Source of the DNA: an uncultured Actinomycetota bacterium
GTDB lineage: Bacteria; Actinomycetota; UBA4738; HRBIN12
Length of the DNA stretch: 64,000 bases
NCBI GenBank assembly: GCA_963762015.1
Contig: CAVXJL010000007.1
Coordinates: forward strand, 408-64,407
Direction: 5' to 3'
The notes below the pieces were generated by a model, which worked only from the letters and a program-made list of their open reading frames with translations, was not told where the DNA came from and made no database searches. The stretch's first letter is position 1, and each line of letters opens with the position of its first letter. This document shows positions 1,327-42,843 of this stretch, in pieces. The translations under genes were made by a program, and so were the position numbers.

Positions 1327-2730
1327 CTAGGAGGACGAGTCTTCCCCGGGGATCGCCACGTCCGGCACCTCTGCCATCGCCGCCACGACGTCTTCTTGCA
1401 TGTACTCGACCTCGGGGAGTCGACCGTTCAGGTAGTCGTCGTACGCCTTCATGTCGAACGCGCCGTGGCCGGAGAGGCCGAACAGGATCACGCGCTCCTC
1501 GCCCGCGTCCCGAGCCTCGATCGCCTCGTCGATGGCGCCGCGAACGGCGTGCGCCGACTCGGGCGCCGGCACGATCCCCTCCGTGTGCGCGAACTGCAGG
1601 GCGGCGTCGAACACCGCGTTCTGCGAGTAGGCCACGGCGTCCATGTGACCGTGCTTGACCAGGAGGGACAGCGACGGCGAGTCGCCGTGGTAGCGCAACC
1701 CTCCCGCGTGCACGGGGGCGGGGACGAACGTATGGCCGAGCGTGTACATCGGGAGCAGCGGGGTCATCATGCCGGTGTCCGCGAAGTCGTACGCGAAACG
1801 ACCCTTCGTGAGTGTCGGACAGGCGGCCGGCTCGGTGGCCAGGAACCGGGTGTCGGGGGTGGAGCCCGACAGGCGATCCACCATGAACGGGTAGGCCAAC
1901 CCCGCGTAGTTGGAGCCGCCTCCCACGCAGCCGATCACGATGTCCGGCCGATCTCCGGCGAGCTCCATCTGCGCCTTGGCCTCCAATCCGATCACGGTCT
2001 GGTGAAGGAGCACGTGGTTCAACACCGAGCCGAGCGAGTACTTGATCGCGCCGCCGGAGGTCGCGGCCACCTCGATCGCCTCGCTGATCGCGATGCCGAG
2101 CGAGCCGGTCGACTCCGGGTCCGCGTCGAGGATCGTCTTGCCCGCTTGCGTCGTCGGGGACGGCGACGGGACGACCTCGGCACCGAACGTCTCCATGAAG
2201 ATGCGGCGGTACGGCTTCTGCTCGTACGAGGCCTTCACCATGAACACCTGGCAGTCGATCCCGAAGAACTTCGCCGCCATCGCCAGGGCGGATCCCCACT
2301 GCCCGGCGCCCGTCTCGGTCGCCAGACGCTTCGTCCCCGCCTCCTTGTTGTAGAAGGCCTGCGCGATCGCGGTGTTCGGCTTGTGACTACCGGCCGGCGA
2401 GACCCCCTCGTACTTGAAGTAGATGCGCGCGGTCGTCTGGAGCGCCTTCTCCAGACGAACCGCCCGGTGCAACGGCGACGGCCGCCAGAGGCGGTAGACG
2501 TCGAGCACCTCACCCGGGATGTCGATCCACGGGTCGGTCGAGACCTCCTGCAGGATCAGCGACTCCGGGAACAAGGGCGCGAGGAGATCGGGCGTCACCG
2601 GCTCGTGGGTGCCGGGGTGCAGGGGCGGAAGAGGCTGCATCCCGGCCTGCGCGATCGACGGCATGATGTTCAGCCAGGCCGTGGGCAGCTGGTCCTGGGA
2701 CAGATCGAAACGGGTGGTCGGGTCGGTCAT
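1327..2730 (-). CDS. trpB: Tryptophan synthase beta-like PLP enzyme, TrpB2 type (stand-alone)
   Basis: Intact 467 aa ORF. PLP-lysine motif [14 protein letters not shown] loop and the long TrpB2-style N-terminus ([16 protein letters not shown]). No trpA or other trp gene is adjacent. Confidence 0.85.
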
Positions 2731-2797
2731 CGGGGAAGCCTCCTCGTTCTCCGGAAGAGGGCGAGCCTACCCCGCGACGCGACCACCGGAGCCAGTC

Positions 2798-2828
2798 CGG
2801 GCAGCCGACCGTTCCGGACGGCTGCCCG
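2798..2828 (-). terminator. GC-rich hairpin directly after the Rieske gene stop codon
   Basis: CGGGCAGCCG (2798-2807) pairs with CGGCTGCCCG (2819-2828) around an 11-nt loop, abutting the TAA stop at 2830-2832. No clear U-tract on the minus strand, so this may be an I-shaped terminator or only a stabilising hairpin. Confidence 0.3.
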
Positions 2829-2829
2829 C

Positions 2830-3153
2830 TTATCGGTTCGGCTGCTCGGCGACCTCGACCCAGCCGTCCACCAGGCGAGCCTGGTGGACGGCCACGGGAT
2901 CTTGGGCGGGACCCTCCAGCGGCTCACCGGTCTCGACGTCGAAGACGCTCCCGTGACAGGGGCACTCGACGGTGGAGGCTCGGTCGTCGAACGATCCCTC
3001 GGAGAGCGCGCACCCCGCATGCGTGCACTCGTCCGCGAAGGCGAACAGCCGTGCCTCCACGTGCGCGATCGCCACGCGACCTGTGGACAGGTCGAACGCC
3101 CGCACCTCTCCTTCGGGGATCTCCGCGATCGACCCGACCCGAACGAAGTCCAC
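2830..3153 (-). CDS. Rieske [2Fe-2S] ferredoxin-type protein
   Basis: CTHAGCAL...CPCHGSVF (CxH...CxxH). GTG start at 3153 (VDFVRVGSIAEIPEG). The upstream part of the 237-aa ORF is Arg/Pro-rich off-frame text overlapping the neighbouring gene. Confidence 0.8.
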   Translation of the reverse strand: MDFVRVGSIAEIPEGEVRAFDLSTGRVAIAHVEARLFAFADECTHAGCALSEGSFDDRASTVECPCHGSVFDVETGEPLEGPAQDPVAVHQARLVDGWVEVAEQPNR

Positions 3154-23997: not shown

Positions 23998-24732
23998 TCA
24001 GGATCGCTCGACCCGCTCGACCTGCTCGACCTGCTCGACTTGCTCTACCGGATCACGCTCGTCCCGTTCGTCCCGCTCCTGCTCGGCGCGCGGTTCGGCA
24101 GGGACGTGATCTCCGTTGTTGCCCTTCAGCACACCGAGGATCGCCTCCATCTCGGAATCGGGCAGTCGCTGGTCGGGGTGCATACCCGTGGCACGCGCGG
24201 ATGCGAGCAGGGTTCTGAGGTTGGACTCGGCCATCTCGACCCGATGCTCCAGCTCCCGAGCGCGTTCCGCGAGGCCGCGGGCACGCCGCTCGGCCTCGGC
24301 GCGCATCTCCCTGTTCTGACGGGCTTCCTCTCGGGACGTCTTGAGCTGGGCACGGAGTAGGGACACCTCCTGACCCAGCTCGACCAGGCGATCCACGGTC
24401 GCCCGGCCCAGGTCCGAATAGGCCAGGCCACCACGACGTGCCGCGCCCGGATCCTCCGGCCGCTTCCGGGAGCGTCTGCCTCTGCGCTCGATCGTCTCCC
24501 GTTCTCCCTCCATGACCGGGGTCTGGTCCAGGAGGCGGTATGAACCACCGGCCGGCTCCAGGCGGCGCCGCGCCACCAATGCCCTCACTGCGCGCGCGAT
24601 CGACAATGGATCCGGGAAACCCAATTCCCTGCCAAGCTCCGCAGGAGTGGCTTCCAGCAGTTCCCCCTTCTCTGTGCGCTCCGCGACAGCGGCGAGGAAT
24701 GCATTGACGCGCTCGAGACTCTGCTCGTTCAC
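23998..24732 (-). CDS. Hypothetical protein: N-terminal winged-helix-like segment, central coiled coil, acidic repeat tail
   Basis: GTG at 24732 is preceded by GGGAGAA. 244 aa. The N-terminal section reads like a wHTH (ATPAELGRELGFPDPLSIARAVRALVARRRLE). The middle is Arg/Glu-rich heptad-like. The C-terminus is ...VEQVEQVEQVERVERS. Confidence 0.55.
   Translation of the reverse strand: MNEQSLERVNAFLAAVAERTEKGELLEATPAELGRELGFPDPLSIARAVRALVARRRLEPAGGSYRLLDQTPVMEGERETIERRGRRSRKRPEDPGAARRGGLAYSDLGRATVDRLVELGQEVSLLRAQLKTSREEARQNREMRAEAERRARGLAERARELEHRVEMAESNLRTLLASARATGMHPDQRLPDSEMEAILGVLKGNNGDHVPAEPRAEQERDERDERDPVEQVEQVEQVERVERS
24006..24050. repeat. 9-bp in-frame tandem repeat (about 5 units)
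   Basis: GCTCGACCC / GCTCGACCT / GCTCGACCT / GCTCGACTT / GCTCTACCG. It encodes the (VEQ)n tail of the minus-strand gene. Confidence 0.85.
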
Positions 24733-24811
24733 AGACGGATTCTCCCTGATTGTCAGGTCAACGCGCCAGTTGTGCGGAAGCACACCAAGTGAGGGCAGTA
24801 GGCTCCGCTCC

Positions 24812-25954
24812 GTGGATCCCCTTCCCCTGTCCGGTATCCGCGTCCTGGACCTCTCCCGGGTGCTCGCCGGGCCGCTTGCGACCCAGATCCTGGGCGATCT
24901 TGGCGCCGACGTCGTCAAGGTCGAGCGTCCCGGCGAAGGCGACGACACGCGTCAGTGGGGGCCTCCCTTCGTGGGATCGGACGCCGCCTATTACCTCTCC
25001 CTCAACAGGAACAAGCGCTCGGTGACGGTCGACCTCAAGACCGCGGAGGGAGTCGACGCGATCCGCCGGCTCGCGAGCGGTTCGGATGTCCTGATCGAGA
25101 ACTTCCGCCCTGGTCTCATGGCCGACGTCGGGCTGATCCCCGAGGATCTCCGTCGAACCACGCCCGGCCTGATCACGTGTTCGTTGACGGCCTTCAACGA
25201 CGAAGTGCCGGACGCCGCGCGTCGTCCGGGCTACGACATCATGGTCCAGGCATTGTCCGGACTCATGAGCGTCACCGGCGAGCCGGACGGAGAACCGGTG
25301 AAGGCCGGCGTGGCGCTCCTGGACGTCATCACGGGGTTGCAGGCCGCGATCGGCATCCTCGCAGCCCTCCACGAGCGGGCCCGAACCGGTCGGGGAAGAC
25401 ACGTGAGCGTGTCGCTCTTCGACGCCAGCGCCGCCGCCATGGTGAACCAGGCCGCCAATCACCTGATCGGGGGGATCGTTCCTGGGCCTATGGGCACGGC
25501 ACACCCGAACATCTGTCCGTACCAGGCGTTCCGTGCTTCGGACCGACCGTTCATCCTCGCGGCGGGGAACGACAGACTGTTCCGGCGAACCTGTGAGGTG
25601 GTCGGGCACGCGGAGTGGGCGGACGATCCTCGGTACGCGACGAACCAGGCGCGCGTGCGCCATCGCGACGAGCTCATCCCTCTCCTCCACGGGTCCTTCG
25701 CGACGAAGACCGCCGCCGAGTGGATCGAGGAGCTCGAAGCGGCTTCCGTTCCCTGCGCCCCGATCCGGGCGATGGACGAGGTCTTTTCCTCGCCGGAAGG
25801 CGCTGCGCTCGTGGAGTCGGTGTCCGACGACGCACGGGGGACGACACTTCGCCTCGTCCGAAATCCCATCCGATTCGACGGCCGGGCCCTGGACACGAGG
25901 CGAGCTCCGCCGCTGCTCGGGGAACACACCGACGAGGTCATGCGCGAGACGTGA
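24812..25954 (+). CDS. Family III CoA-transferase (CaiB/BaiF-type)
   Basis: GIRVLDLSRVLAGPLATQILGDLGADVVKVE N-terminus and a family-typical length from GTG 24812. Confidence 0.85.
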   Translation: MDPLPLSGIRVLDLSRVLAGPLATQILGDLGADVVKVERPGEGDDTRQWGPPFVGSDAAYYLSLNRNKRSVTVDLKTAEGVDAIRRLASGSDVLIENFRPGLMADVGLIPEDLRRTTPGLITCSLTAFNDEVPDAARRPGYDIMVQALSGLMSVTGEPDGEPVKAGVALLDVITGLQAAIGILAALHERARTGRGRHVSVSLFDASAAAMVNQAANHLIGGIVPGPMGTAHPNICPYQAFRASDRPFILAAGNDRLFRRTCEVVGHAEWADDPRYATNQARVRHRDELIPLLHGSFATKTAAEWIEELEAASVPCAPIRAMDEVFSSPEGAALVESVSDDARGTTLRLVRNPIRFDGRALDTRRAPPLLGEHTDEVMRET

Positions 25955-29285: not shown

Positions 29286-30062
29286 TTAGGCCGATCCGAG
29301 GAACGTCGGTAGGTCCGCGAAAGACGCGAGAACATGATCGGGCCTGCCCTCGGGATGTTCCGCATCCCCTTCCCGATACTTCCCGGTCCGGACCAAGATC
29401 CCGGTGAGCCCCGCCGCTTGCGCTCCCAGGATGTCGTTGACGATGTCGTCGCCCACCATCGCGACACGATCGGCTTCCAGACCCAGCATCGCCAGCGCCG
29501 CGTCGAAGTAGGCCTTCTCTGGTTTCCCACAGATCGTCGCCTTCGTGTTCGCGGCCTCCTCGAGTCCGGCGATGTAAGCACCGCCGTCCAGCTCCCAACC
29601 TTCGCTCGTCTTCCAGAAGAGGTTCCTGTGCATCCCCACGAGTGAGGCCCCCTCCATCAGGCGTCGGAAGATCGCGTTCAAGGTCGCGTAGGTGAAGTCA
29701 TCGCAGGCACCTCCGATGACGATCACGTCGGCGTCCCCGACCGGCACGAGGTCGATGCCGGCAAGGTCCTCCGTCGCGTCTCCATCGGAGAGAACGAAGA
29801 CCTTCGATCCCGGGTGTGCGGCGCGCAGATTGGCGGTCGTCGCGACGACGGCGGTCACGATCTCCTCCTCCCCGACGTCGAATCCGCCATCCCGGAGCGT
29901 GCTGGCGAGGTCGGCGCGCGTCTTCGTGGTCGTGTTGGTGATGAGGCGGAACGGAACCGCGTCATCACGAAGGCGCTTCATCGCATCGACCGCGCCCGGG
30001 AGCGCCTCCCAGGAAACGGCGAGCACTCCGTCGATGTCCAGCAGCAGCCCCTCGATCGCCAC
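29286..30062 (-). CDS. HAD-IIA family phosphatase
   Basis: GTG at 30062 (VAIEGLLLDIDGVL gives the DxDG motif), TNTT, GKP and GDDIVNDI motifs. 258 aa. Confidence 0.8.
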   Translation of the reverse strand: MAIEGLLLDIDGVLAVSWEALPGAVDAMKRLRDDAVPFRLITNTTTKTRADLASTLRDGGFDVGEEEIVTAVVATTANLRAAHPGSKVFVLSDGDATEDLAGIDLVPVGDADVIVIGGACDDFTYATLNAIFRRLMEGASLVGMHRNLFWKTSEGWELDGGAYIAGLEEAANTKATICGKPEKAYFDAALAMLGLEADRVAMVGDDIVNDILGAQAAGLTGILVRTGKYREGDAEHPEGRPDHVLASFADLPTFLGSA

Positions 30063-30171
30063 GATCGGAGTCTCGCATGCAAGAGGGGCAGCGCCGCCTC
30101 CGGCAGGATCGGCCCGGCGATCCCGGAAGATGCCAACGAGTCGGCCGTTCGGGCCGGATACTTCCCACGTG

Positions 30172-30819
30172 ATGGTGGTCCTCATCGTGCTCGCCCTGGC
30201 GATCCTTGTCGGCTTCATCGCGGGCGGGAGCATCCGACCCTTCGAGCATCTCAAGGTGCGCTGGTGGGGGATCGCCCTTGCGGGCCTCGCCCTCCAGGGG
30301 GTTTCCCTCGCAAGTGACATCGGTCGCTCTGCCGGGTCGGCGTTGCTAGTGGGCTCCTATGCGCTGCTCCTGTTGTTCGGATGGGCGAACCGCCGGCTTC
30401 CCGCCCTCTGGCTCGTGATGGCGGGGCTCGTGCTGAACATCCTGGTCATCGGCGTGAACAGCGGGATGCCCGTGAGCGCGAGCGCCCTCGAAACGGCCGG
30501 TGCCCGCGCCGAGGGTCTCGGCGTGGGCACCGCGAAGCACCACCTGATGGGCCCCGACGACAAGCTGACGCCGCTGGGAGACGTGATCGGAATCCCGCCG
30601 CCCGTCGGCGCCGTTATCTCGATCGGCGACGTCCTGCTCTACGCCGGTATCGCGATCCTCGTCGTCGCGGTCATGCTCGGACGCTTCGACGAGGATCCCC
30701 CGGAAGCGGCTCCGCTCTTCCAGGGGTACCGGGGGAAGCACCTGCCTCCGGATCGCCGCTTCTCATCTCTGGCGCCTCGGCCGGCGGCTCCTGCTGCAAG
30801 AGGGACGTGGGGAACCTGA
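30172..30819 (+). CDS. DUF5317-like small polytopic membrane protein
   Basis: MVVLIVLALAILVGFIAGGS... with 5-6 TM helices. The 3' tail overlaps the convergent kinase gene by about 149 nt, so the true stop of one of the two may differ. Confidence 0.55.
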   Translation: MVVLIVLALAILVGFIAGGSIRPFEHLKVRWWGIALAGLALQGVSLASDIGRSAGSALLVGSYALLLLFGWANRRLPALWLVMAGLVLNILVIGVNSGMPVSASALETAGARAEGLGVGTAKHHLMGPDDKLTPLGDVIGIPPPVGAVISIGDVLLYAGIAILVVAVMLGRFDEDPPEAAPLFQGYRGKHLPPDRRFSSLAPRPAAPAARGTWGT

Positions 30820-32194
30820 CCGTGATCGTCGCGCCCGCACCGGGTGCGCTCTCGACCTCGAAGCGTCCACCACCCACCTGCGCGCGTTCCCGCATCATCG
30901 CCATCCCGAAGTGACCCTCGGGACCCGGAGCGCTCGTGTCGAAGCCGACTCCGTTGTCCTTGAGACTGAGCACGATGTCGTCGTCTTCCTCGCGAACCGC
31001 GATCCACATGTCTCTGGGCTGCGCATGTTTGAGGGCGTTCATCACGCCCTCGCGCGCGATGTGGTACACGAGCAGGGCGATCGGAGCCGGGAGCTGGATG
31101 TCCTCGACGTCGCGATGGAACCGGATGGATGAATCGCGACCGACCTCGTCGGTGAAGGACTCGAGCGCCTCCGCGAGACCTTTCGCGCCGAGCGGTGAAC
31201 GATGCAGATCTCGGATGAGCGCGCGGATCCGGTCCGACGTCTCTTGCTTCGACTGACGGATCTTGTCGAGCTGGAGGCTCACGTCCTCCATCTGACCTTT
31301 CGCGAGGAGCTTGCGTGCGACATCGACCTGGATAGAGAGACGGAACAACACCTGAGCGAGGTCATCGTGGAGGTACCCGGCGATCTGGAGTCGTTCATCG
31401 GCCCGTTCCTCCGCCATCGCGTTCGAAAGCGAACGAAGTACTTGCTCGCGATCCTGAAGTTCTTTGTGAGCCTCTTCGAGAGCCTGCGATCGGAAGAACA
31501 TCTGCCGCGCGAAAAGCAGTGGAGCAAGAATCGCTGGGAGAGCCCAGAAGGTCACTTCTTCGTACAAGAAGGCGAGGCTCAGCCCAACAAGACCGAGGCC
31601 AAAGTAGCTCACAAGGAACTCGCTTAAGCGCCCGATTCGCAGCTCTCGCGCCACCTGTTGGATGGGCACTCCGGTTCGAAGACTCACGAAGACTGCAACG
31701 AGGCCGCTATTGACTGCGTAGTCCACAAGCGACGCTCCGGCTGCTGCGAGCAAGAGGACGACTTCCGATCCGGGCTCGGATTCCCTGCCGAAGCCAGTCA
31801 ACCCGTGGAAGACAGCACTTGCAGCGAGGACCGATAGGGCAACCTGACATCGGTTGAACAGAGCGCGAAGAAACGATACTTCACCTCGGAATTCCCGTGG
31901 ATCTGACGCGCCGATCAAAGCCACAGCCGCGGACGCGGCCGGCTCGTACAGGAACGCCACAACCATGAGCAGCGGAAAGCCGACGCTTATCGTCAGGCCA
32001 CGCCAAGCGGGAACTGGGAGCAGCTCAACTAGTCCGATGAGGGCGGCCCAGAAGACCAGCTCGCCCCCGTATTCCCGGAACGCTGCGGGGTCGCGCGCGA
32101 TGAGGATCCCACCCCCCACCAGGGTAGGAACGATTACCAGAAGCTCGAAGGCGACCACCTTTCGCTGGTCGACCTTGGCCGGATTCGTCTTCAT
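30671..32194 (-). CDS. Sensor histidine kinase, HisKA_3 (NarX/DesK-type) with 7-8-TM N-terminal sensor
   Basis: ATG at 32194 (MKTNPAK). Polytopic N-terminal half, coiled-coil linker, H-box AGYLHDDLAQ, N-box MNALKHA, G1 DNGVGF. Confidence 0.8.
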   Translation of the reverse strand: MKTNPAKVDQRKVVAFELLVIVPTLVGGGILIARDPAAFREYGGELVFWAALIGLVELLPVPAWRGLTISVGFPLLMVVAFLYEPAASAAVALIGASDPREFRGEVSFLRALFNRCQVALSVLAASAVFHGLTGFGRESEPGSEVVLLLAAAGASLVDYAVNSGLVAVFVSLRTGVPIQQVARELRIGRLSEFLVSYFGLGLVGLSLAFLYEEVTFWALPAILAPLLFARQMFFRSQALEEAHKELQDREQVLRSLSNAMAEERADERLQIAGYLHDDLAQVLFRLSIQVDVARKLLAKGQMEDVSLQLDKIRQSKQETSDRIRALIRDLHRSPLGAKGLAEALESFTDEVGRDSSIRFHRDVEDIQLPAPIALLVYHIAREGVMNALKHAQPRDMWIAVREEDDDIVLSLKDNGVGFDTSAPGPEGHFGMAMMRERAQVGGGRFEVESAPGAGATITVRFPTSLLQQEPPAEAPEMRSGDPEAGASPGTPGRAEPLPGDPRRSVRA

Positions 32195-32301
32195 GAACGC
32201 CAATCTTGGCGTTCGCAGCTCTGAGCGCAAGCAGCCCAACGACCCCTACAGCATGTGTCGTACATGACGCCTACAGCAGTCTCGGTAGCTGTATCGGCGT
32301 C

Positions 32302-32330
32302 CTTGTCTATCCCCCGGCTGACGTCGATAT
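32302..32330 (+). promoter_or_regulatory. Sigma-70-like promoter hexamers upstream of the small ORF
   Basis: TTGTCT (32302-32307), a 17-nt spacer, then GATATT (32325-32330). This is pattern recognition only. Confidence 0.3.
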
Positions 32331-32418
32331 TCACCTCTGGAGTCCCCCAAATGGGGGGTTGGCATAGGTCAAAGGCGGGACTGCCTCGTTGGGCCCGTTA
32401 GAGGAGAGGGGGATCGGC

Positions 32419-32502
32419 ATGAAGGTCGTGCGACGGATTGCAATCGCGCTCGGCTCTCTGCTGGCTGTCGCTCTGGCCGGCGGCGCCCACTGGCGCGGCT
32501 AG
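32419..32502 (+). CDS. 27-codon small ORF encoding a signal-peptide-like or single-TM peptide
   Basis: GGAGAGGGGGA ends 5 nt before the ATG at 32419. Translation: MKVVRRIAIALGSLLAVALAGGAHWRG, TAG at 32500-32502. A canonical terminator lies 28 nt downstream. Too short for the supplied ORF track. Confidence 0.35.
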   Translation: MKVVRRIAIALGSLLAVALAGGAHWRG

Positions 32503-32529
32503 TCAGACCGAACTTCAGAGACTGAACAG

Positions 32530-32562
32530 AGGGGGCCTGAAGAAGGGCCCCCTTTTTGTTGT
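32530..32562 (+). terminator. Rho-independent terminator
   Basis: GGGGGCC (32531-32537), 8-nt loop, GGCCCCC (32546-32552), then TTTTTGTTGT. An A-rich stretch lies on the other side, so it may also serve the convergent kinase gene that ends at 32578. Confidence 0.65.
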
Positions 32563-32577
32563 GAGCCAATGGATGCT

Positions 32578-33987
32578 TCATGAATCCTTCGGGATACTTG
32601 CCCCAACCGTTGTTCCTGACCCTAGCCGTGAGTCGATAGACATATGGCCGCCGGCAGCCTCAAGCCGTTCTTTCATGATCTGCAGGCCAAAGTGCCTATT
32701 GCCATCCACCCTGAACCAATCGAACCCAGATCCATCATCGGTGACGCTAACGCGAACCATCGTTTCATCTGCCCAGAGGCGCACAGTGATCCGCGAAGCT
32801 TGGGCGTGCTTCGCAGAGTTGTGGAGAGCCTCGCGGATGACCTGGTATGCGAGTAGCTGAGCAAGAGGGGTGCTCTCAAACTCCTCTTCCACGAGATCCA
32901 CCGGGGGCGACCCAGCGGCCGCAAGCTGATCGACCAGCATGCGAACAGTTGGAACCAGCCCCGCAGCTCCAAGCGGGGATCGGCGAAGATCACCGAGGAG
33001 ATCCCGAATCGCTCGCTGTGCAGCATCCGTTGCGAGGAGCAGTTCAGGGAGATCATCGTCAAGTTCCAGTAGCCGTCCCGCCGCAAGATCTTGCTTGAGT
33101 ACCTGGCCCATGAGATGAACCTTGAAGAGAGACGGAAGAACCTCATCATGCAGCTCCCCGGCCAGGGCCAGGCGCTCGTCCTTTCGTTCCCGCGCGACCT
33201 CTCCAGCAGCGCCACGTAGTGCCGCATCTTTTTGGCGGATGCGCTCTGTGGCGTATAGGACCTGTTGGGTCTGACGAAACATCTCCCGAGCGAGCACAAG
33301 GGGCGCAAGGAACAACAGCAGTGCCCATACGTCACCCACCGCAACCGCGGCGGCAAGTGGAAGAGCAAGGAGGCCAAGAAGAAGGTAGCCAGCCAGGTAA
33401 TGAAGAGGTGACGCGCCGAACATCTTCTGGAGGACACCTCGCGGCGCCAATCGATCTTCAATCGAAACGGCGGAGGCCACCAGTACGAAATTGACGCCAG
33501 CATCAAGCAAGAGGGCAGCTGCACCAGGAAGTAGGACTCTGGGCCAGTCAAGGATGACTCCATCCAACATGTGGAAGAGAGCAGACCCCGCCATCACGCT
33601 TGCAGCCACTTGGCTCCGATTGAACACCGACTTCGCCAACGAAACGCCGCCCCTCAGCTCCCGTGGATCGAAGGAGCCGATGAAGGCGATCAGCGCCGCT
33701 TCGGTAGGAAGAAAGATCATTCCAGCGGCGAGGGTCACAGGAAACGACATGCTGACACTCACGGAACCCCACACGCGAACGGGAACGAGATCAACGGCAG
33801 CCACAATGGCTGCCCACAAACCCAGCTCTACGAGCTCGGCATCATTCCCAGCCAGACGAGCAGCCCCCGGAAGCGCAACGATCGCTGTCAGAAAACTCAC
33901 GGCCCACAGAAATGCCCTAGCCAGTGGTGGCTCGTGCGTACCAGCTTCTGGCTTACGGCGCCTCCTATGACTGATCGAGACCGACAT
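32578..33987 (-). CDS. Sensor histidine kinase, HisKA_3 type, paralog of the neighbouring kinase
   Basis: ATG at 33987 is preceded by GGGAGGAAGG. Same architecture as the 30671-32194 kinase and alignable by eye (GSFDPRELRGGVSLAKSVFNRSQVA vs GASDPREFRGEVSFLRALFNRCQVA). H-box AGELHDEVLP, G1 DDGSGF. Confidence 0.8.
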   Translation of the reverse strand: MSVSISHRRRRKPEAGTHEPPLARAFLWAVSFLTAIVALPGAARLAGNDAELVELGLWAAIVAAVDLVPVRVWGSVSVSMSFPVTLAAGMIFLPTEAALIAFIGSFDPRELRGGVSLAKSVFNRSQVAASVMAGSALFHMLDGVILDWPRVLLPGAAALLLDAGVNFVLVASAVSIEDRLAPRGVLQKMFGASPLHYLAGYLLLGLLALPLAAAVAVGDVWALLLFLAPLVLAREMFRQTQQVLYATERIRQKDAALRGAAGEVARERKDERLALAGELHDEVLPSLFKVHLMGQVLKQDLAAGRLLELDDDLPELLLATDAAQRAIRDLLGDLRRSPLGAAGLVPTVRMLVDQLAAAGSPPVDLVEEEFESTPLAQLLAYQVIREALHNSAKHAQASRITVRLWADETMVRVSVTDDGSGFDWFRVDGNRHFGLQIMKERLEAAGGHMSIDSRLGSGTTVGASIPKDS

Positions 33988-34130: not shown

Positions 34131-34574
34131 ATGACCGCCGAACCTGACCAAGACCCCAAGAAGCGCCGATCGCCCTTCCGCGACGAGGTCTGGGGGGATG
34201 AACCCCAGGAGGTCGACGCCTCCGAAGTCGTCGAGGAACTGGAGACGTCGCAATCAGAGCTCGCTCGCAGATGGCACGACCACCCGACCATCGTCCCGTT
34301 CAAGATCGTGGCCGGCTTCATCGCTCGCAACGGCAAGCGCGTCGCGATCACGATCGCCGGCTTCGTGGTGCTCCTCGCCGGCTTGGCGATGCTGGTACTC
34401 CCCGGTCCAGGCATCATCGTGATCCTCGCCGGCCTCGCGATACTCGCCACCGAGTACGTCTGGGCTCAACGACTCCTGAGGATCGCGAAGGAGAAGGCGA
34501 ATCAAGCGAAGGACGCGGTCTTCAAGAAGAAGGAAGAGGAGGGAAAGACCGAAGAAGGCGGTGAGCAAACGTGA
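34131..34574 (+). CDS. PGPGW-motif transmembrane protein
   Basis: Contains AGLAMLVLPGPGIIVILAGLAILATEY and a Lys/Glu-rich tail. 147 aa. Confidence 0.7.
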   Translation: MTAEPDQDPKKRRSPFRDEVWGDEPQEVDASEVVEELETSQSELARRWHDHPTIVPFKIVAGFIARNGKRVAITIAGFVVLLAGLAMLVLPGPGIIVILAGLAILATEYVWAQRLLRIAKEKANQAKDAVFKKKEEEGKTEEGGEQT

Positions 34575-35505: not shown

Positions 35506-36663
35506 ATGGAGAGGCGCTGGAAACTCGTATCCATCGGCAGCATCCCGATCTACATCACCTTCCCCTGGCTCTTCTTCGCCGCCTTCATCGTCTGGGACAT
35601 CTACAACAGCCTGGTGGGGACGGGCGTGCTCACACGACAGCAGGCGTTCGGCTGGGCCCTCGCGAATGCCGCATTGTTCTACGGCAGCATCATCCTGCAT
35701 GAGCTCGCGCACGCGGTGACCGCGCGAGCCTTCCACTTGCCCGTGCATGGGATCACCCTCGTGTTCTGGGGTGGCTACACCGAGACCCACTCGAGCGAGC
35801 GAGGCCCGCTCGCCTCCTTCCTGATCTCGGCCGCCGGGCCCCTCACCACGCTGGCCCTCGGTGGTGCGTTCTGGCTCGGCGCCGCGACGACCGATGGAGT
35901 CCTTTCGGCGATCCTCCGCAGCCTCGCGTTCCTCAGCGTCCTCTTCGCGGGGCTGAACGCGCTCCCCGGCTTCCCACTCGACGGCGGCCGGATGCTGCTG
36001 GCGGTGATCTGGGGGATCACGAAAGACCGCTTCCTCGCCCTGAAGGTCGCCGGGTGGGGAGGAGTCGTCGTCGGCGGTGCACTCGCGCTCGTCGGTCTGC
36101 AGCTCCTCCGCAGCGGGAACGGCACCTGGATCTTCTTCGGGTTCGTCGGGTGGATGATGATCAGCCAGGGGTTACAGGTGGGCAAGCAGGCTCCCATCCT
36201 CAGGAACCTGTCCGAGGGACGGGTCTCGGAGGCGATGAGCCCTGCGCCGCCACCGATCCTCGCCGACACCACCTTGCTGCATGCCCTCGAGAGCCATCTC
36301 CGCGAGGACCGCTCGACGGAGTTCCCCGTCGTGGACGAACAGGGGCGCGTGATCGGGTCCCTGTCCTTCGGGACGGCGGCCAAGATCGGAGGACGCGATC
36401 CGACCCGGGGGGTACGGGAGGCCATGACCCCACGGGAGCAGATGCGATGGGTACAGCCGGATCTCACGCTCGATCGGGCACTCGAATGGATCGCCGGCAG
36501 CGGGCAGGCGCTCGTCCTCGACGGCGATCGGCTGCTCGGGCGGCTCACGACGAGGGACGTCGACCGGTGGTACCAACGGCGGATCGGCGGAGCCTCGGCG
36601 TCGGACGAGTCCGGCGCGGTGCCGCCCCGGCCCGATCTCGGGGGTGTCGGCGACTGGCGGTAG
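35506..36663 (+). CDS. Site-2 (M50) family metalloprotease with C-terminal CBS pair
   Basis: HELAH zinc motif, NALPGFPLDGG, then CBS-like repeats (EAMSPAPPPILADTTL..., REAMTPREQMRWVQPDLTL...). Confidence 0.85.
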   Translation: MERRWKLVSIGSIPIYITFPWLFFAAFIVWDIYNSLVGTGVLTRQQAFGWALANAALFYGSIILHELAHAVTARAFHLPVHGITLVFWGGYTETHSSERGPLASFLISAAGPLTTLALGGAFWLGAATTDGVLSAILRSLAFLSVLFAGLNALPGFPLDGGRMLLAVIWGITKDRFLALKVAGWGGVVVGGALALVGLQLLRSGNGTWIFFGFVGWMMISQGLQVGKQAPILRNLSEGRVSEAMSPAPPPILADTTLLHALESHLREDRSTEFPVVDEQGRVIGSLSFGTAAKIGGRDPTRGVREAMTPREQMRWVQPDLTLDRALEWIAGSGQALVLDGDRLLGRLTTRDVDRWYQRRIGGASASDESGAVPPRPDLGGVGDWR

Positions 36664-36673
36664 CATCCGCCCT

Positions 36674-39589
36674 GTGAGCCCCCCTTACTCCCCCGATGCT
36701 CAGCAAGAGGCCGTCCTGGCACATGGGACAGGTGCGCTCTTGGTGACCGGCGGTGCGGGCACCGGAAAGTCCTCGGTGCTCCGCGAGCGGTTCGCTCGGC
36801 TCGTGGAGGGTGGTGCGGACGCGGAGCGGGTGGCCCTGGTGGTGGGATCGCGGCGCGCGCGCCAGGTCGCGCGCGACGCGCTCATCGCGCGCCTCCCGTC
36901 GTCGCTCTCCAGCCTCCAGGTCCTAACGTTCCACGGTCTCGGCCATCTGATCCTCCGCGAGCGGTTCTCCGCGCTCGGCTACGCCGAGCCTCCCGAGGTG
37001 CTCTCGGCCGCGGATCAGTTCGCGCTCGTTCAGGATCTGCTCCAGGGGCAGAACCCGGCCGAGTGGCCCGCATACGGCCACCTCCTCACCCTGCGAGGGT
37101 TCGCCGATCAGATCCGTCAGTTCCTGTTGCGAGCGCAGGAAGCTCGCCTCACGCCGGAGGAGATCGAGACGAGGGCCGATGCGCGCGGCCTCACGGGCTG
37201 GCGCGAGCTCGCGCGCTTCTATCACGACTATCTGGACGTGCTCGACGCCGATCGCGTCGTGGACTTCGCTGCGTTGATCGGGCGCGCGGAGGCAGCGGTG
37301 TCGGCGGCGGACACTCCGCTGCTCGATCACCTGCTCGTCGACGACTACCACGATGCGACGTTCGCGCAAGAGGCGCTCGTGACCTCGCTTCGAGTGAACG
37401 ACCTGGTGGTGGCGGCCGATCCCGAAGCGCATGTCTTCTCGTTCCAGGGCACGACGGCCGTGCCCTCCCTTCGATTCACGGAAGTGTTCCAAGGGGCCAC
37501 GCACGTCGAGTTGGATACCCCGCATCGCGCTCCACGGCCGGTGCGCATCGATGCGTGGAGCGCGGCCCACACCTCGGAGGAGTACGCAGCCATCGCGCGC
37601 GAGCTCCGACGACTCCACGTGGACGAAGGCGTCTCATGGGGCGATCTGGCGGTGGTCGTCCGGCGACAGGGTGCGCACGTGGGAGGTCTGCTCCGTGCCC
37701 TGGACGACGCTCGGGTGCCCCGGATGGCTCCGGAGAGCGGCGTTTCCCTGGCTCAGGAGCCCGCCACGCGTCCGTTCGTGCTGGCGCTGCGTTGGCTCGT
37801 GGGGTCCGAGGACGAACGGAGCGGGTTGATCGAATCCGTCTTGACCTCGGATCTCGTTCGTCTCTCGCCGGCGGCGGCGCGCGGCCTCCTGCGCGTCGCG
37901 CACACCAGGACGGGTTCGGTGGCGAGGGCGCTCGAGTTCACGGACGGTCTCACCGCGCAGGAGGCCGCGCAGGTGGAGGAGGTTCGAGGAGTGCTCGATC
38001 GGGCCGCGGAAGACGTGGACCGCTCGGTGCTCGACACGTTCGCCACCCTATGGCGCGAGCTCCCGTGCTCACGCCGCCTCGTCGAAGGAGGCGATACCTC
38101 CGTCGACACGCGGCGCGAGCTCGACTCCGTCGTCGCCTTCTCGAGCGCGGTCGCGGAAGCAGGCTCGGCCGCCGATCCGTCGGTCGAGGCGTTCCTCTCG
38201 TCGGTGGATGCAGGCGAGCGAGGTCCCGGCTTCTCGGCGTGGGAACGCCGCGACGCCGACGCCGTGCAGGTCCTGACCGCCCACGGTGCCGCGGGCCGCG
38301 AGTTCCATACCGTGATCGTCGTCGGCACCGTGGAAGGCAACTTCCCGAGCCTGTCGCGGCCCGAGCCCATGTTCGATCTCGCCGCACTCGACCGGCTCGT
38401 CTCCCAGTCGGACCGCAATCGCGCCCGCTTGGAGGACGAACGCCGCCTGTTCCGGATGGTTCTCGGTCGTGCGCGCGAGCGCATCGTCTTGATGGCCAGC
38501 CGCGCCCACGCCGACGAGGCGTCGACGGGCTCGCGGTTCGTCGAGGAGCTGGGGATCAAGTGGTCACCGGTGCCGGATCCGGGGCTCGCGGAACCGATCT
38601 CGGTCCGCGAGGCCGCGGCCCTGTGGCGCAGGACGCTCGCGGACCGCGCCGTCTCCGGCGTCGAGCGTCTGGCTGCGCTCGAAGGGCTCGTCACGCTCGG
38701 CGTGGATCCGCGGCGCTGGTGGTTCCAGCGCGACTGGACGGACACCGGCCGCCCGCTCCACGAGCATCTCCGCGCGTCCTACTCCAAGCTCGACGTGCTG
38801 GACAACTGCGAGCTGCAGTTCGTCCTCGGCTCGGAGCTCGGGCTCGGACGCCCCGTCGGCTATCAGGCTTGGGTCGGGTCGCTCGTCCACCGGATCATCG
38901 AGGACTGCGAGAAGGGCGAGGTCACGCGCACGCTCGAAGCGCTCAACGCGGAAGTCGACCGGCGGTGGCGCCCCCAGGAGTTCCCGGCGAAGGCCGTCTC
39001 GGAGGCATGGCGCGCGCTCGCGAAGGGGCGGATGCTCCCCAACTGGTTCGAGCGCTACGGGGCCTATCCGGCATCGGCGACCGAGCGTGGCTTCGAGTTC
39101 GACTACGAAGGGGCATCGATCGTCGGCTACATCGACCGTATCGGGCCTGACCCGGCGGGGTTCCCCGGCGTCCGCATCACGGACTACAAGACGGGCAGCG
39201 CGGATCGCGCCCCCAAGGCGAACGAGAGTCTCCAGCTCGGCATCTACTACCTGGCCGTCCTCGAGTCCGAGGAGATGAAGGAGTTCCAACCGGTGTCCGG
39301 CGTCGAGCTGTCTTACTTGAAGGGCCACTGGCGGACCGGCGAGCTCGAGACCCGGGAGTGGACCGTGGGTACGCCCGACCGCGAGGAGGCGTACCAGAAC
39401 GTCATGCGCGAAAAGCTCTCGGGCCTCGTCGGCGAGCTGGCAAGGCTGAACGAGAGCGAGTCGTATCGACCCAACTACCAGGCCAACTGCTTCTTCTGCG
39501 AGTTCCAGTCGCTCTGCCCGCTCTTCCCCGAGGGACGGCCCCTGTTCGACGTGGGCGATCCCGCGATCGCGGTGAAGACCCCACGATGA
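36674..39589 (+). CDS. adnA: UvrD-like helicase / RecB-family nuclease subunit, AdnA-like
   Basis: Walker A GGAGTGKSS, UvrD-type helicase motifs, and a C-terminal PD-(D/E)XK domain (YIDRIG...ITDYKTG) with Cys motif C...CFFCEFQSLC. Alternative GTG start at 36644. Confidence 0.8.
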   Translation: MSPPYSPDAQQEAVLAHGTGALLVTGGAGTGKSSVLRERFARLVEGGADAERVALVVGSRRARQVARDALIARLPSSLSSLQVLTFHGLGHLILRERFSALGYAEPPEVLSAADQFALVQDLLQGQNPAEWPAYGHLLTLRGFADQIRQFLLRAQEARLTPEEIETRADARGLTGWRELARFYHDYLDVLDADRVVDFAALIGRAEAAVSAADTPLLDHLLVDDYHDATFAQEALVTSLRVNDLVVAADPEAHVFSFQGTTAVPSLRFTEVFQGATHVELDTPHRAPRPVRIDAWSAAHTSEEYAAIARELRRLHVDEGVSWGDLAVVVRRQGAHVGGLLRALDDARVPRMAPESGVSLAQEPATRPFVLALRWLVGSEDERSGLIESVLTSDLVRLSPAAARGLLRVAHTRTGSVARALEFTDGLTAQEAAQVEEVRGVLDRAAEDVDRSVLDTFATLWRELPCSRRLVEGGDTSVDTRRELDSVVAFSSAVAEAGSAADPSVEAFLSSVDAGERGPGFSAWERRDADAVQVLTAHGAAGREFHTVIVVGTVEGNFPSLSRPEPMFDLAALDRLVSQSDRNRARLEDERRLFRMVLGRARERIVLMASRAHADEASTGSRFVEELGIKWSPVPDPGLAEPISVREAAALWRRTLADRAVSGVERLAALEGLVTLGVDPRRWWFQRDWTDTGRPLHEHLRASYSKLDVLDNCELQFVLGSELGLGRPVGYQAWVGSLVHRIIEDCEKGEVTRTLEALNAEVDRRWRPQEFPAKAVSEAWRALAKGRMLPNWFERYGAYPASATERGFEFDYEGASIVGYIDRIGPDPAGFPGVRITDYKTGSADRAPKANESLQLGIYYLAVLESEEMKEFQPVSGVELSYLKGHWRTGELETREWTVGTPDREEAYQNVMREKLSGLVGELARLNESESYRPNYQANCFFCEFQSLCPLFPEGRPLFDVGDPAIAVKTPR

Positions 39590-42500
39590 GCGCGACCACG
39601 ACCTATCCGCAGGAGATCCTCGACGTGCTCGGCGGGCGACCTCCGACCGAGGAACAGTGGCGCGCGATCACGTGGCCCCTCGAGCCCTACGTGTTGGTGG
39701 CCGGCGCCGGTTCGGGGAAGACCTCGGTGATGGCCGCGCGCGTCGTTTATCTGGCGCTCGTCGCTCTCGGCCGTCTTCCCTCGGAACATCCGGGCGTCCT
39801 CCCGGGCAACGTCCTGTGCCTCACCTTCACCAACAAGGCAACGGAGAACCTGCAACGACGGGTTCGACGCGCGCTCGCCGGTCTCGACCTCCCGGACGGG
39901 GAAGAGCCGGAGATCACCAACTACCACGGGTTCGCGGCCCAGCTGCTCGAACGCCACGGTGTGCTGATCGGGATCGAGCCGAACCAGCGGGTCCTGACGC
40001 CCGCCCAGCGCGTCGAGCTCTGCGCGCGGGTTCTGGATCGGATGACGTTCGAGGTCGTGGAGGCCCAGCGATTGCCCGGCGTCGTCGACAGGATCCTGAC
40101 CCTCGACGACCAGGCTGCCAATCACTTCCGCTCACCGCAGGAGATCGTCGAATTCAACGAGCAACGGCTCGAAGAGCTGAAGGATCATCGATCGGATCGC
40201 GCGTTCGGATCGGCGAGGGAGCGTATCGAGCTCGCCAAGGCATGCGCGGTCTTCCGGGAGCTCAAGCGGGAGCTGGGCGTCATCGACTTCGGCGATCAGA
40301 TCGAACTGGCACTCAACATCGTCGAGCAGCACCCGGAGGTCGCCCGTCAGTATCGCGAGCGCTTCGCAGCGGTCCTGCTCGACGAATACCAGGACACCAA
40401 CGTGGCGCAGGCGCGGCTCATGGCGGGTGTCTTCGGGGACGGTCATCCGGTGACGGCGGTCGGCGACCCCGACCAGAACATCTACGCGTGGCGCGGGGCG
40501 TCGTTGTTCAACCTGCTCGAGTTCCCGAACCAATTCCGGAAGGCCGACGGTGACCATGCGACGAAGCTCCCCCTGTACACCAACTTCCGCTCGGGCGCCC
40601 GGATCCTGGAGGCGGCCGACGTCCTGATCGGACAGCTCCCGGCGCAGCAGCGTCCCGACCCTGACAAGCGGCTCGTCCCCTGGGAAGAGAACGGCCCCGG
40701 CGAGGTCCATGTGGCCCGCATCTCCGACGAGGTGAAAGAAGCGGCATGGGTCGCGGATCGCATCGTCGCGTTGCACGAGCACGGCGCGGCGTGGTCGGAC
40801 TGTGCCGTGTTGTGCCGCACCTCTCGACTCTTCCTTTCCTTGCAACAAGCTTTCAACGAGCGAGGGGTGCCCGCGGAGATCCTCGGGCTCGCAGGGTTGC
40901 TCAAGATGCCCGAGGTCGTCGAGGTGCTCGCCTACGCTCGCGCGACGCTTGATCCGCTGGCGAGCGTCGCGCTCGGCCGGATCCTCCTGGGACCGCGGTA
41001 CCGGGTCGGATTCAAGGACCTGGCGCTCGTCGCCTCGCTGGCCAAGAACAAGAGCTACGCCCTGCGCGAGGAGGACGAGGCCGAAGGCGAAGCCACCCCG
41101 TTCCTCTTCACGGAGGCGCTCGAGCACCTGGACGAGGTCGAGGGGATCTCGGAGGAGGGCCGGGCGCGCCTGGAGGAGTGCCGCCAGGAGCTGGCGGCAC
41201 TCCGGGTCGAGGCGCGCCGCCCGGTCGGTGAGTTCCTCGGTGAGATCATCCGGCGGACGGGGATCCTCACCGAGCTCGACGCCCAGTTGGACGTGGCGTC
41301 CGCGGCGACCGCCCGACGCAACCTCGCGGCGTTCCTCGACGAGGTGCACGCCTTCTCCCCCGTCCAGGGCGAGCTCACGCTCCGCGCGTTCCTCGAGTAC
41401 GTCGACGCCGTCGAGAACCTCGACAAGCAGGAGTGGTCGCCCGTACAGCCCTCCGAAGAAGACTCCGTCAAGGTCATGACGATCCATGTCGCGAAGGGCC
41501 TCGAGTTCGATCACGTCTTCGTCCCAGGCCTCGCGAACGGCCTCCTGCCCAACACGACGATCCAGCACAATCCGGCCGAGCGAGGCAAGTCCATGGACTT
41601 CGAGCTCCGTGGCGACGCCTCGTACCTCCCCCGCTACGACGGCAACCTGTCGGCGTTCAAGAAGGACCTGAAGAAGCAGGAGGAGTACGAGGAACGGCGG
41701 ACCGCATACGTGGCGATGACCCGCGCCCGCCGGACCCTGCACGTCACCGGCGCCCATTGGTACGCGGAGAACCTCCGCGCCAAGGAAGCCGGTCCGTTCC
41801 TCCGCGAGCTCAAGGACTGGGTCATGGAGACCAAGCACGCCACGTGGGACCCGGGTGCCGACATCGACGAGGAGAACAACCCGATCCTCGGATATCGCGA
41901 GCGATTCGTCCGGAACTGGCCGGGTCCCGCGCTCCCGGCCGGAACGGATGCCTTGTTCCCCGAAGGGTGGCGGCACGCCGCCGTCGTCGCGAGCGACGAC
42001 GGCGGCGTGCAGACGTCGCTCCTCGAGTCACTCGACGACGAGGAACGGGAGGCGTTGGTTCGGCTGACGAGCGACCGGCGTGGCCTCGCGCTCCATCTGA
42101 AGGAGCGCGAGGGGGCCGAACGGGCCGGGCAGGAGCTGGCCCCCCCGCGGTCCGTGTCGGTGGGGGGAGTGATCGATTACTCGCGGTGCCCGAAGCGCTT
42201 CTACTGGACATCGGTGCGGCCCCTCCCACGCTTCTCGGGACCGGCGGCACGGATCGGAACGGAGATCCACAGCTGGATCGAGCGCCGCTCCTCGGGCCAG
42301 GGCCAGCTCCTCGAGCTCGACGATGCCCCCGACCTCACCTCCGAAGAGCTCGCGGATCAGCCGAGCAAGGTCGATCGGCTGCGGCAGGCCTTCCTCGCCA
42401 GCCGGTTCGCGGGGAAGGTGCCGCTGTTCGCCGAGCGAGCCTTCCTCCTGCGGATGGAGGGGTTCGCGGTGTCGGGCCGGATCGACGCGGTGTTCGGGGG

Positions 42501-42843
42501 ATCGGTCGAGGCTCCGTGGGAGATCGTCGATTGGAAGACGGGTAAGCGCCCGGCGGCTGACGACCCTCTCGCGGGACTCCAGCTCGAGCTCTACGGGCTG
42601 GCGTGCATCGAGGTCTGGGGCAAGCGCGCCGAGGATCTCACGCTCACCTATCTGTACCTCGCCGGCGGCGAGGAGGTCTCCCACGCCATGGGCGATCCCG
42701 ACGGGGTGCGGGCTCGCGTCTCGGAGTCACTTCGATCGATCGGCGCGGGAGCGTTCGATCCGATCCCAGGCGCATGGTGCCACCACTGCGACTTCCTGTC
42801 CTTCTGCGAGGCCGGCCGCGCCTGGACGGCTCACGAGGCGTGA
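39586..42843 (+). CDS. adnB: UvrD-like helicase / RecB-family nuclease subunit, AdnB-like
   Basis: The ATG at 39586 overlaps the adnA stop (ATGA). Walker A GAGSGKTS, DEYQDTN, and a C-terminal nuclease (RIDAVF...EIVDWKTGK) with C...CHHCDFLSFC. Confidence 0.8.
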   Translation: MSATTTYPQEILDVLGGRPPTEEQWRAITWPLEPYVLVAGAGSGKTSVMAARVVYLALVALGRLPSEHPGVLPGNVLCLTFTNKATENLQRRVRRALAGLDLPDGEEPEITNYHGFAAQLLERHGVLIGIEPNQRVLTPAQRVELCARVLDRMTFEVVEAQRLPGVVDRILTLDDQAANHFRSPQEIVEFNEQRLEELKDHRSDRAFGSARERIELAKACAVFRELKRELGVIDFGDQIELALNIVEQHPEVARQYRERFAAVLLDEYQDTNVAQARLMAGVFGDGHPVTAVGDPDQNIYAWRGASLFNLLEFPNQFRKADGDHATKLPLYTNFRSGARILEAADVLIGQLPAQQRPDPDKRLVPWEENGPGEVHVARISDEVKEAAWVADRIVALHEHGAAWSDCAVLCRTSRLFLSLQQAFNERGVPAEILGLAGLLKMPEVVEVLAYARATLDPLASVALGRILLGPRYRVGFKDLALVASLAKNKSYALREEDEAEGEATPFLFTEALEHLDEVEGISEEGRARLEECRQELAALRVEARRPVGEFLGEIIRRTGILTELDAQLDVASAATARRNLAAFLDEVHAFSPVQGELTLRAFLEYVDAVENLDKQEWSPVQPSEEDSVKVMTIHVAKGLEFDHVFVPGLANGLLPNTTIQHNPAERGKSMDFELRGDASYLPRYDGNLSAFKKDLKKQEEYEERRTAYVAMTRARRTLHVTGAHWYAENLRAKEAGPFLRELKDWVMETKHATWDPGADIDEENNPILGYRERFVRNWPGPALPAGTDALFPEGWRHAAVVASDDGGVQTSLLESLDDEEREALVRLTSDRRGLALHLKEREGAERAGQELAPPRSVSVGGVIDYSRCPKRFYWTSVRPLPRFSGPAARIGTEIHSWIERRSSGQGQLLELDDAPDLTSEELADQPSKVDRLRQAFLASRFAGKVPLFAERAFLLRMEGFAVSGRIDAVFGGSVEAPWEIVDWKTGKRPAADDPLAGLQLELYGLACIEVWGKRAEDLTLTYLYLAGGEEVSHAMGDPDGVRARVSESLRSIGAGAFDPIPGAWCHHCDFLSFCEAGRAWTAHEA

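Follow-up and report, generated by a model that had tools for sequence, protein, structure and literature searches.

Does the 383-bp gap between two neighboring histidine kinase genes hold a gene of its own, and if so, what might its product do there? The question arises in a 64-kb stretch of DNA from an uncultured member of the Actinomycetota (contig CAVXJL010000007.1, hereafter the window), in which the gap separates two genes that we call kinase 1 and kinase 2. An original prediction, made from the letters of this stretch, had proposed that the gap carries a self-contained mini-gene for a signal-peptide-like product between paralogous, polytopic HisKA_3 kinases, complete with promoter hexamers, a leader hairpin, a ribosome-binding site (RBS), an open reading frame (ORF) and a terminator. 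Comparison with relatives shows that the ORF at 32419-32502 is a genuine and strongly conserved protein-coding gene, which its flanking signals mark as independently transcribed, and the proposed arrangement recurs throughout a broad clade of uncultured Actinomycetota.

A conserved small gene between two histidine kinases

Every one of the predicted elements is found in the sequence, within one base of where it was expected. Both promoter hexamers are there with the proposed 17-nt spacer, one base away from the positions first given for them. The locus contains the following features, from left to right:

30671-32194, minus strand: kinase 1, with a MASE9 membrane sensor, HisKA_3 and HATPase_c (Pfam scan); divergent from the small gene
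32246-32263, strand not applicable: second, imperfect copy of the inverted repeat described in the next line, CTACAGCATGTGTCGTAC, 25 bp further upstream
32271-32288, strand not applicable: 18-bp inverted repeat CTACAGCAGTCTCGGTAG (CTAC-N10-GTAG), starting 32 bp upstream of the -35 hexamer; putative transcription-factor site
32303-32331, plus strand: promoter, with -35 TTGTCT at 32303-32308, a 17-nt spacer and -10 GATATT at 32326-32331 (sequence read)
32342-32358, plus strand: hairpin or palindrome GTCCCCC-AAAT-GGGGGG, starting about 11 nt past the -10 hexamer, at the extreme 5′ end of the predicted mRNA
32403-32413, plus strand: Shine-Dalgarno region GGAGAGGGGGA, 5 nt before the ATG at 32419 (sequence read)
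32419-32502, plus strand: small gene, with an ATG start, 27 codons and a TAG stop, product MKVVRRIAIALGSLLAVALAGGAHWRG (sequence read)
32528-32565, plus strand: intrinsic terminator, a GC-rich stem at 32528-32555 followed by TTTTTGTTGT (terminator scan)
32578-33987, minus strand: kinase 2, monocistronic, with a polytopic sensor, HisKA_3 and HATPase_c (Pfam scan); convergent with the small gene

Taken by itself, the window is weak evidence for the small gene, because short ORFs are plentiful on both strands of this G+C-rich region and the promoter hexamers match just 8 of 12 positions, which is below the threshold of a consensus sigma-70 promoter scan that reported no site. The 5′ hairpin is present in both the minimum-energy and the centroid folds of the sequence; searched across the window, its pattern is matched no more often than in shuffled sequence. 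The terminator, which lies 12 nt from the stop codon of the convergent kinase 2, is one of two terminator-like sites found in a scan of 31900-32900. The CTAC-N10-GTAG repeat is the sole match to its pattern in the 64 kb, where 0.09 matches are expected. It is only when relatives are compared that chance can be firmly discounted.

An alignment of kinase 1 homologs gave 80 loci in species-representative genomes, all of them metagenome-assembled. The label is Actinomycetota or Actinomycetes for nearly all of them; one record has Gemmatimonadales in its title. The contig is long enough to show the tandem kinase pair at 62 of these loci, with a gap of about 250-730 bp, and all 62 carry an ORF of 27-29 codons at the same position and in the same orientation. 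Two copies contain a single-base indel, both in long-read assemblies; otherwise frame, length, start and stop are kept throughout. The start codon is ATG in 60 of the 62 copies, and a Shine-Dalgarno-like core lies at -18 to -4 in every copy, compared with 24% for the other ATG and GTG codons of the same intergenic regions. Across 59 distinct nucleotide sequences, the entropy at codon positions 1, 2 and 3 is 0.64, 0.34 and 1.39, so that variation piles up at third positions. The ratio of nonsynonymous to synonymous polymorphism (pN/pS) is 0.345 in the frame of the ORF versus 1.35 and 2.0 in the other two frames. The codon-position pattern and this ratio show that selection acts on the protein.

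That prediction had also allowed for a chance ORF within a promoter/terminator region, or for a noncoding small RNA. The abundance of short ORFs in this G+C-rich sequence and the lack of a significant promoter call in the window alone would fit such a reading, but the preservation of the frame at all 62 loci and the concentration of changes at third positions refute it. Searches of Rfam with the gap (E <= 10) and with the whole window (gathering score) returned chance-level matches and one tRNA only. We therefore give a chance ORF or a small RNA next to no probability.

Transcription signals and the tie to the kinases

The signals around the ORF are conserved along with it. A promoter of the consensus TTGTCC(CCC)-N17/18-GATAGT is kept in 59 of the 62 loci, with a spacer of 18 nt in 45 loci and of 17 nt in 13. 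At 54 of 59 loci, a hairpin with arms of C4-5 and G4-5 around a variable loop of N3-5 starts 9-13 nt past the -10 hexamer. At that distance it would occupy the first bases of the predicted mRNA, whose implied 5′ untranslated region is 43-82 nt long. Downstream, at least 40 of 61 loci have a GC-rich hairpin and T-tract at a distance of 45-55 nt from the stop codon. The terminator stems are unrelated among loci, so that it is the position and structure of the terminator that are conserved, not its sequence.

The CTAC-N10-GTAG repeat lies at -32 or -31 from the -35 hexamer in about 50 of the 62 loci. Because this spacing is fixed whereas the distance to the start of kinase 1 varies, the repeat belongs to the promoter of the small gene, and it is probably a transcription-factor site. 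The imperfect second repeat is limited to the window's own clade, where it lies at -57 (in the window and in L001, L002, L052 and L064). We considered a CsoR-type repressor for the C5-N4-G5 palindromes and rejected it, as neither the window nor the loci contain a CsoR homolog and the flanks of the palindrome are asymmetric. Judged by these conserved signals, the small gene is an independent and probably regulated transcription unit with its own predicted promoter, 5′ stem-loop, RBS and terminator.

The tie to the kinases is seen from the side of the peptide as well. A reverse search of metagenome contigs with the peptide motif alone also gave 80 loci. Where the contig leaves room for the neighbor in question, a divergent kinase 1-like flank is present in 61 of 70 of these peptide-derived loci and a convergent kinase 2-like flank in 56 of 61. 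The arrangement is kept even at identities as low as about 35% for kinase 2 and about 60% for kinase 1 (the homologs range over the loci from 35 to 90% and from 60 to 93%, respectively). We compared distances in 80 complete triples of peptide, kinase 1 and kinase 2. The mean pairwise distance is 0.29 for the peptide, as against 0.48 for the sensor of kinase 1 and 0.63 for that of kinase 2, which means that the peptide is more tightly constrained than either sensor domain; for the catalytic parts, the values are 0.22 and 0.51. Together, these comparisons show that the small protein is genomically tied to the kinase pair. They also show a small-gene family of soil Actinomycetota that is nearly always located between two paralogous histidine kinases with MASE9-type, membrane-embedded sensing. 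Genes this small are routinely missed by annotation, and this one is nonetheless more conserved than the sensor domains of the neighboring kinases.

Kinase 1 matches the MASE9 model (PF20972) with 28.9 bits, above the Pfam gathering score of 24.3. Kinase 2 has no MASE9 match in Pfam at E <= 0.01. The two kinases are paralogs, about 33% identical over an alignment that begins at about residue 45-54 and extends through the catalytic domain, and their hydropathy patterns are the same. By hydropathy, each contains about six or seven hydrophobic segments, the loops between which are no longer than about 20 residues, and neither can therefore hold a sizeable extracytoplasmic domain. This bears out the earlier description of the flanking kinases as polytopic and without a periplasmic domain. 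Their likeness to AgrC and ComD, also part of that description, extends to topology only, the sensor domain being MASE9. The MASE9 domain was defined by Galperin and Chou, whose proposal is that ligand binding takes place inside the membrane (bioRxiv 10.1101/2021.11.05.467447). Since both kinases lack extracytoplasmic domains and their type of sensor is proposed to bind ligand in the membrane, they are plausible targets of a membrane helix.

Anatomy of the small protein and its possible roles

The family consensus is M-K-x-x-[K/R]-R-I-A-I-A-L-G-S-L-L-A-[V/I]-A-L-A-G-G-A-H-[W/F/Y]-[K/R]-x. M1, R6, A20, G21, G22, A23 and H24 are invariant, and L11, A16 and A10 are nearly so (identical in 34, 33 and 32 of 35 variants, respectively). 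The hydrophobic core at positions 7-19 is about 80% conserved on average; position 18 is A in 25 of the 35 variants and otherwise M, V or I. At the hydropathy threshold used, the 27-residue protein has a single hydrophobic segment, residues 3-24, with a charge of +3 at the N-terminus and +1 at the C-terminus. Given this charge distribution and the positive-inside rule, the product is predicted to be a single-pass membrane protein with its N-terminus inside and its C-terminus outside. Just three or four residues follow the helix, so it has no folded external domain. On a helical wheel, G12, A23, A16, A20, S13 and A10 share one arc, bounded by R6 and H24, and I, L, V and W occupy the opposite arc. 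Close packing between helices requires a small-residue face of the kind projected here.

Database searches found no named relatives. Neither the 27-residue nor the 37-residue form matched Pfam or NCBIfam at permissive thresholds, a profile search of the PDB gave only a spurious 12-residue match, and a full-text literature search for the motif strings retrieved nothing relevant. Copies in the databases are called sporadically, at lengths of 27 to 78 residues, and are always named "hypothetical protein." A search of a large protein database with a 50-residue extended form returned 24 unnamed small ORFs only, with no fusion to larger proteins. Long proteins in the peptide's 90%-identity clusters (P0131, P0133-P0135 and P0140-P0142) were examined as candidate fusions and rejected as a clustering artefact, the motif being absent from them; clusters with 28-residue and 37-residue peptides include a 607-residue DNA primase. 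Judging by the sequence itself, we also rejected a double-glycine leader of the ComC/bacteriocin type (the hydrophobic leader lacks acidic residues), a Tat signal (many members have KR in place of RR, and there is no cargo) and a lipoprotein signal (L-A-G-G has no cysteine). By these searches, the small proteins are a new family, unrelated to any named small-protein family.

Our preferred answer to the question of function, which we hold tentatively, is that the small protein is a membrane-resident accessory or modulator of the MASE9/HisKA_3 kinases that acts by helix packing, with its level set through the operator, in a logic like that of MgrB and SafA. The protein would stay in the membrane as a single helix, with its basic N-terminus (K2, R5, R6) facing the cytoplasm and its invariant A-G-G-A-H-[W/F/Y]-[K/R] end at the outer membrane surface. 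The small-residue face (A10, G12, S13, A16, A20, A23), between R6 and H24, would pack against a transmembrane helix of a kinase, and packing on one or both kinases would shift the balance between kinase and phosphatase activity. A transcription factor at CTAC-N10-GTAG would set the level of the small protein, making it a feedback or connector element of the signaling circuit, as MgrB and SafA are on PhoQ. Paralogs under SARP-type or OmpR-type regulators could feed other pathways into the same kinases.

Several observations weigh against this proposal. No receiver domain or response regulator is encoded anywhere in the 64 kb, which leaves the kinases without a cognate regulator there; an adjacent NarL-type response regulator, considered as a partner, was rejected on the same ground. 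The small gene and the two kinases form three separate transcription units rather than an operon. About 10 of the 80 peptide-derived loci show no kinase within the recovered stretch, several of them lying beside soluble regulators, and the family is thus not strictly dependent on an adjacent kinase. In mirror-tree and partial-correlation analyses, the peptide correlates more closely with kinase 1 than with kinase 2, a result confounded by phylogeny and perhaps reflecting saturation of kinase 2. The hydrophobic span from I7 to A23 is 17 residues long and is followed by a small-residue motif, as in a cleavable signal peptide. Finally, the putative interaction with the kinases is drawn from gene neighborhood and sequence anatomy.

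The short span would suit a different reading, in which the ORF amounts to a signal peptide and its C-terminal four to seven residues, (GGA)H[W/F/Y][K/R]x, are released as an exported cue and sensed by the flanking kinases, in resemblance to Phr or SHP peptides. Signal peptidase I could cleave after A20 or A23, or an intramembrane protease could act at the AGGA kink. The layout is indeed that of an n-h-c signal, with a basic N-terminus, a 13-residue hydrophobic run and the invariant A20-G21-G22-A23, which satisfies the -3/-1 rule at two possible sites. The invariant residues gather at the C-terminus, the kinases lack an extracytoplasmic domain, and the tiny gene diverges from a signaling gene in the way that shp genes are transcribed divergently from rgg. 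In Phr of Bacillus, SHP and XIP of streptococci, and AgrD and ComC, very short precursors with a basic N-terminus and a hydrophobic stretch are encoded beside signaling genes, and the last few residues are the active part. The small gene shares their size, their basic and hydrophobic layout and their signaling neighbors. However, the receptors of those peptides are cytosolic RRNPP/Rgg proteins or HPK10 kinases, whereas here they would be MASE9/HisKA_3 proteins. An exported precursor should also leave its hydrophobic region free to vary, with selection on the released part, but here the core is conserved position by position, which is unexpected in a disposable leader, and position -3 is Met in 7 of 35 variants. 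The supposed signal hardly varies across distant lineages although the kinases have diverged to 35-60% identity, and pheromones usually diversify with their receptors. In the flanks covered, no transporter for exporting the peptide, no protease for processing it and no Opp-type importer was conserved, and no cytosolic RRNPP-type receptor was seen; an M50 protease is encoded 3 kb away, for which just 11 loci gave a match within the limited flanking DNA of each locus. We consider an exported cue unlikely, and distinctly unlikely the specific case of a pro-peptide whose C-terminal GGAH[W/F/Y][K/R]x or H[W/F/Y][K/R]x is liberated at the cell exterior, where the MASE9 kinases sense it in peptide-based cell-to-cell signaling. 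Were the latter true, it would bring peptide signaling to the Actinomycetota, a phylum known for small-molecule rather than peptide signals, and would provide the first identified MASE9 ligand. The original prediction had put forward both an exported cue and a membrane modulator. Without separating the two, the evidence leans toward the modulator, because a core about 80% conserved, a small-residue face and the absence of conserved export or processing genes nearby fit a membrane-resident helix that packs on a partner better than a disposable signal peptide.

The protein might also reside in the membrane with a role that is independent of the kinases, as a stabilizing subunit of another complex, as a ligand site (metal, quinone or heme) built around His24 with the aromatic and the basic residue, or as a stress effector. 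The kinase neighborhood would then reflect regulation, not binding. This would agree with the tandem small-gene pairs described below, which lie beside SARP/cyclase/AAA_16 regulators or an OmpR-type regulator and have 11-bp-spaced repeats upstream, the usual picture of a regulated target, and it would agree with the invariance of His24 and the AGGA motif and with the conserved synteny with UbiE/MenG-type and UbiA-type genes. Regulation alone poorly explains the strict placement between the kinases over very deep divergence, however, since neither of the two binds DNA. Moreover, the gene has no conserved neighbors that encode another membrane complex, and Pfam, NCBIfam and the PDB offer no likeness to known small subunits. 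On balance, a kinase-independent role seems rather unlikely to us, though it and the exported cue are the main rivals of the modulator. Very unlikely, by contrast, is a type I toxin-like hydrophobic peptide that damages or depolarizes the membrane when expressed. A 27-residue hydrophobic product, a structured 5′ end and a dedicated terminator are what one might expect of such a gene, and the small-residue face could support oligomerization, but toxin loci are patchy or multicopy and mobile, whereas the small gene is single-copy in the window, syntenic with HAD and UbiE, and follows the kinase pair clade-wide. A Shine-Dalgarno-like core near the start codon of every copy also speaks against a toxin, and no antisense RNA gene was seen, though no search dedicated to one was made.

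Returning to the proposed kinase modulator, we compared it with known systems. Small single-helix proteins that bind sensor kinases have been reviewed (PMC12648545), and the small protein, with its 27 residues and a single predicted transmembrane helix, agrees with this class in size (at most about 65 residues) and in topology. MgrB (47 residues) inhibits PhoQ in Enterobacteria through transmembrane and periplasmic contacts and exerts negative feedback under the control of its own pathway (PMC12648545). Like MgrB, the protein studied here appears to be a single-helix small membrane protein expressed from its own small transcription unit. The two share no sequence similarity, and Pfam, including its MgrB model, gave no match. 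They differ further in that the periplasmic tail of MgrB is functional and contains two cysteines, whereas just three or four residues extend past the helix here, and in that mgrB is not adjacent to phoQ, whereas the present gene lies between two kinases. The kinases here are also of a different class, HisKA_3 with a MASE9 sensor, and from a different phylum, and binding to them is putative.

SafA (65 residues), UgtS (34 residues) and YoaI are small membrane connectors that act on PhoQ or EnvZ (PMC12648545). They are expressed under one regulator and modulate the kinase of another pathway, which matches the idea of SARP/OmpR-linked paralogs feeding the MASE9 kinases. There is no homology to them, and the known connectors are taxonomically narrow whereas the small-gene family, for which a connector role is putative, is deeply conserved. 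KdpF (29 residues), CydX and AcrZ, which are one-helix stabilizing subunits of membrane complexes (PMC12648545), resemble the small protein in size, single helix and predicted membrane residence. Unlike them, it has no similarity in Pfam, NCBIfam or the PDB, and its conserved neighbors are kinases, with no transporter or oxidase genes. Overall, we infer that the gene resembles the small membrane modulators of sensor kinases yet fits no named family. Its phylum, kinase class, layout and depth of conservation all set it apart from the known examples.

If the small protein does bind the kinases, control of kinases by small proteins, so far seen almost wholly in Enterobacteria, would extend to the Actinomycetota and to membrane-sensing kinases, and the MASE9 domain would have its first concrete candidate partner or ligand. 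The promoter, the putative operator and the SARP/OmpR-linked paralogs would make up a compact regulatory module, open to testing, in soil bacteria that are abundant and uncultured.

Paralogs and chromosomal surroundings

The family also occurs outside the kinase gap. Among the peptide-derived loci without a visible kinase, five (L132, L146, L157, L158 and L159) contain two small genes in tandem, whose products end in HWR[A/V]G and in HFKVN, and in each the pair is divergent from a large soluble SARP-type regulator. In the two longest copies of this regulator, Pfam identifies Trans_reg_C, BTAD, TPR and guanylate cyclase domains, with AAA_16 in one. Three (G)TTAG direct repeats with 11-bp spacing lie upstream of the first small gene in these SARP-linked loci, and 11-bp-spaced direct repeats are the classical layout of SARP/OmpR-type binding sites. 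A further tandem pair, on a short contig, is directly divergent from an OmpR-type response regulator (L155, 40-1130), again with 11-bp-spaced direct repeats upstream of its first small gene. Because its paralogs adjoin SARP and OmpR regulators, the small protein is repeatedly coupled to signaling genes, and its expression is apparently under pathway control.

The same OmpR-type regulator, at 70-88% identity to the L155 copy, is found directly beyond kinase 2 and divergent from it in 30 genome loci (within L012-L078, at about 2300-3100 in locus coordinates) and in 8 metagenome loci (L100, L121-L123, L130, L142, L144 and L160). In the loci whose ORFs were read, the next gene after the regulator encodes a HAMP-HisKA kinase that matches sCache weakly; L012 and L035 have an Rv2466c-like thioredoxin after that kinase. 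The window's own clade does not have this operon at the position beyond kinase 2.

Copy number varies in a few places. At L058, where the kinase gap measures 729 bp, two small-gene copies are present instead of one. Two complete kinase-pair/small-gene loci, L017 and L070, occur in a single genome bin (assembly CAWGUD01), so the whole module can be duplicated.

In the window, two further small membrane-protein genes flank the kinases:

29692-30819, plus strand: DUF5317 small membrane-protein gene, convergent with kinase 1
34131-34574, plus strand: PGPGW-family small membrane-protein gene, beyond kinase 2 and divergent from it

The neighbors around the cluster comprise kinases, DUF5317, HAD, UbiE, PGPGW and DUF72. 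The wider chromosomal surroundings are conserved too, with a HAD hydrolase in 76 of the 80 loci and UbiE in 63 of the 80, and the cluster is syntenic with UbiE/MenG-type and UbiA-type genes.

A few unrelated features were recorded along the way. At L101, an ORF on the minus strand (171-1235) starts like the N-terminus of kinase 1 and ends as the C-terminus of an AcrB-type transporter, and is probably an assembly chimera. Elsewhere in the window, two large adjacent genes on the plus strand (36644-39589 and 39358-42843) each encode UvrD-type helicase and PD-(D/E)XK nuclease domains and look like an AdnAB/AddAB-like pair. At about 24000-24060, the translations are periodic, reading VEQVEQVEQVERVE on one strand and STCSTCSTCS on the other, which points to a 9-bp tandem repeat where the minus-strand ORF at 23998-24948 ends.

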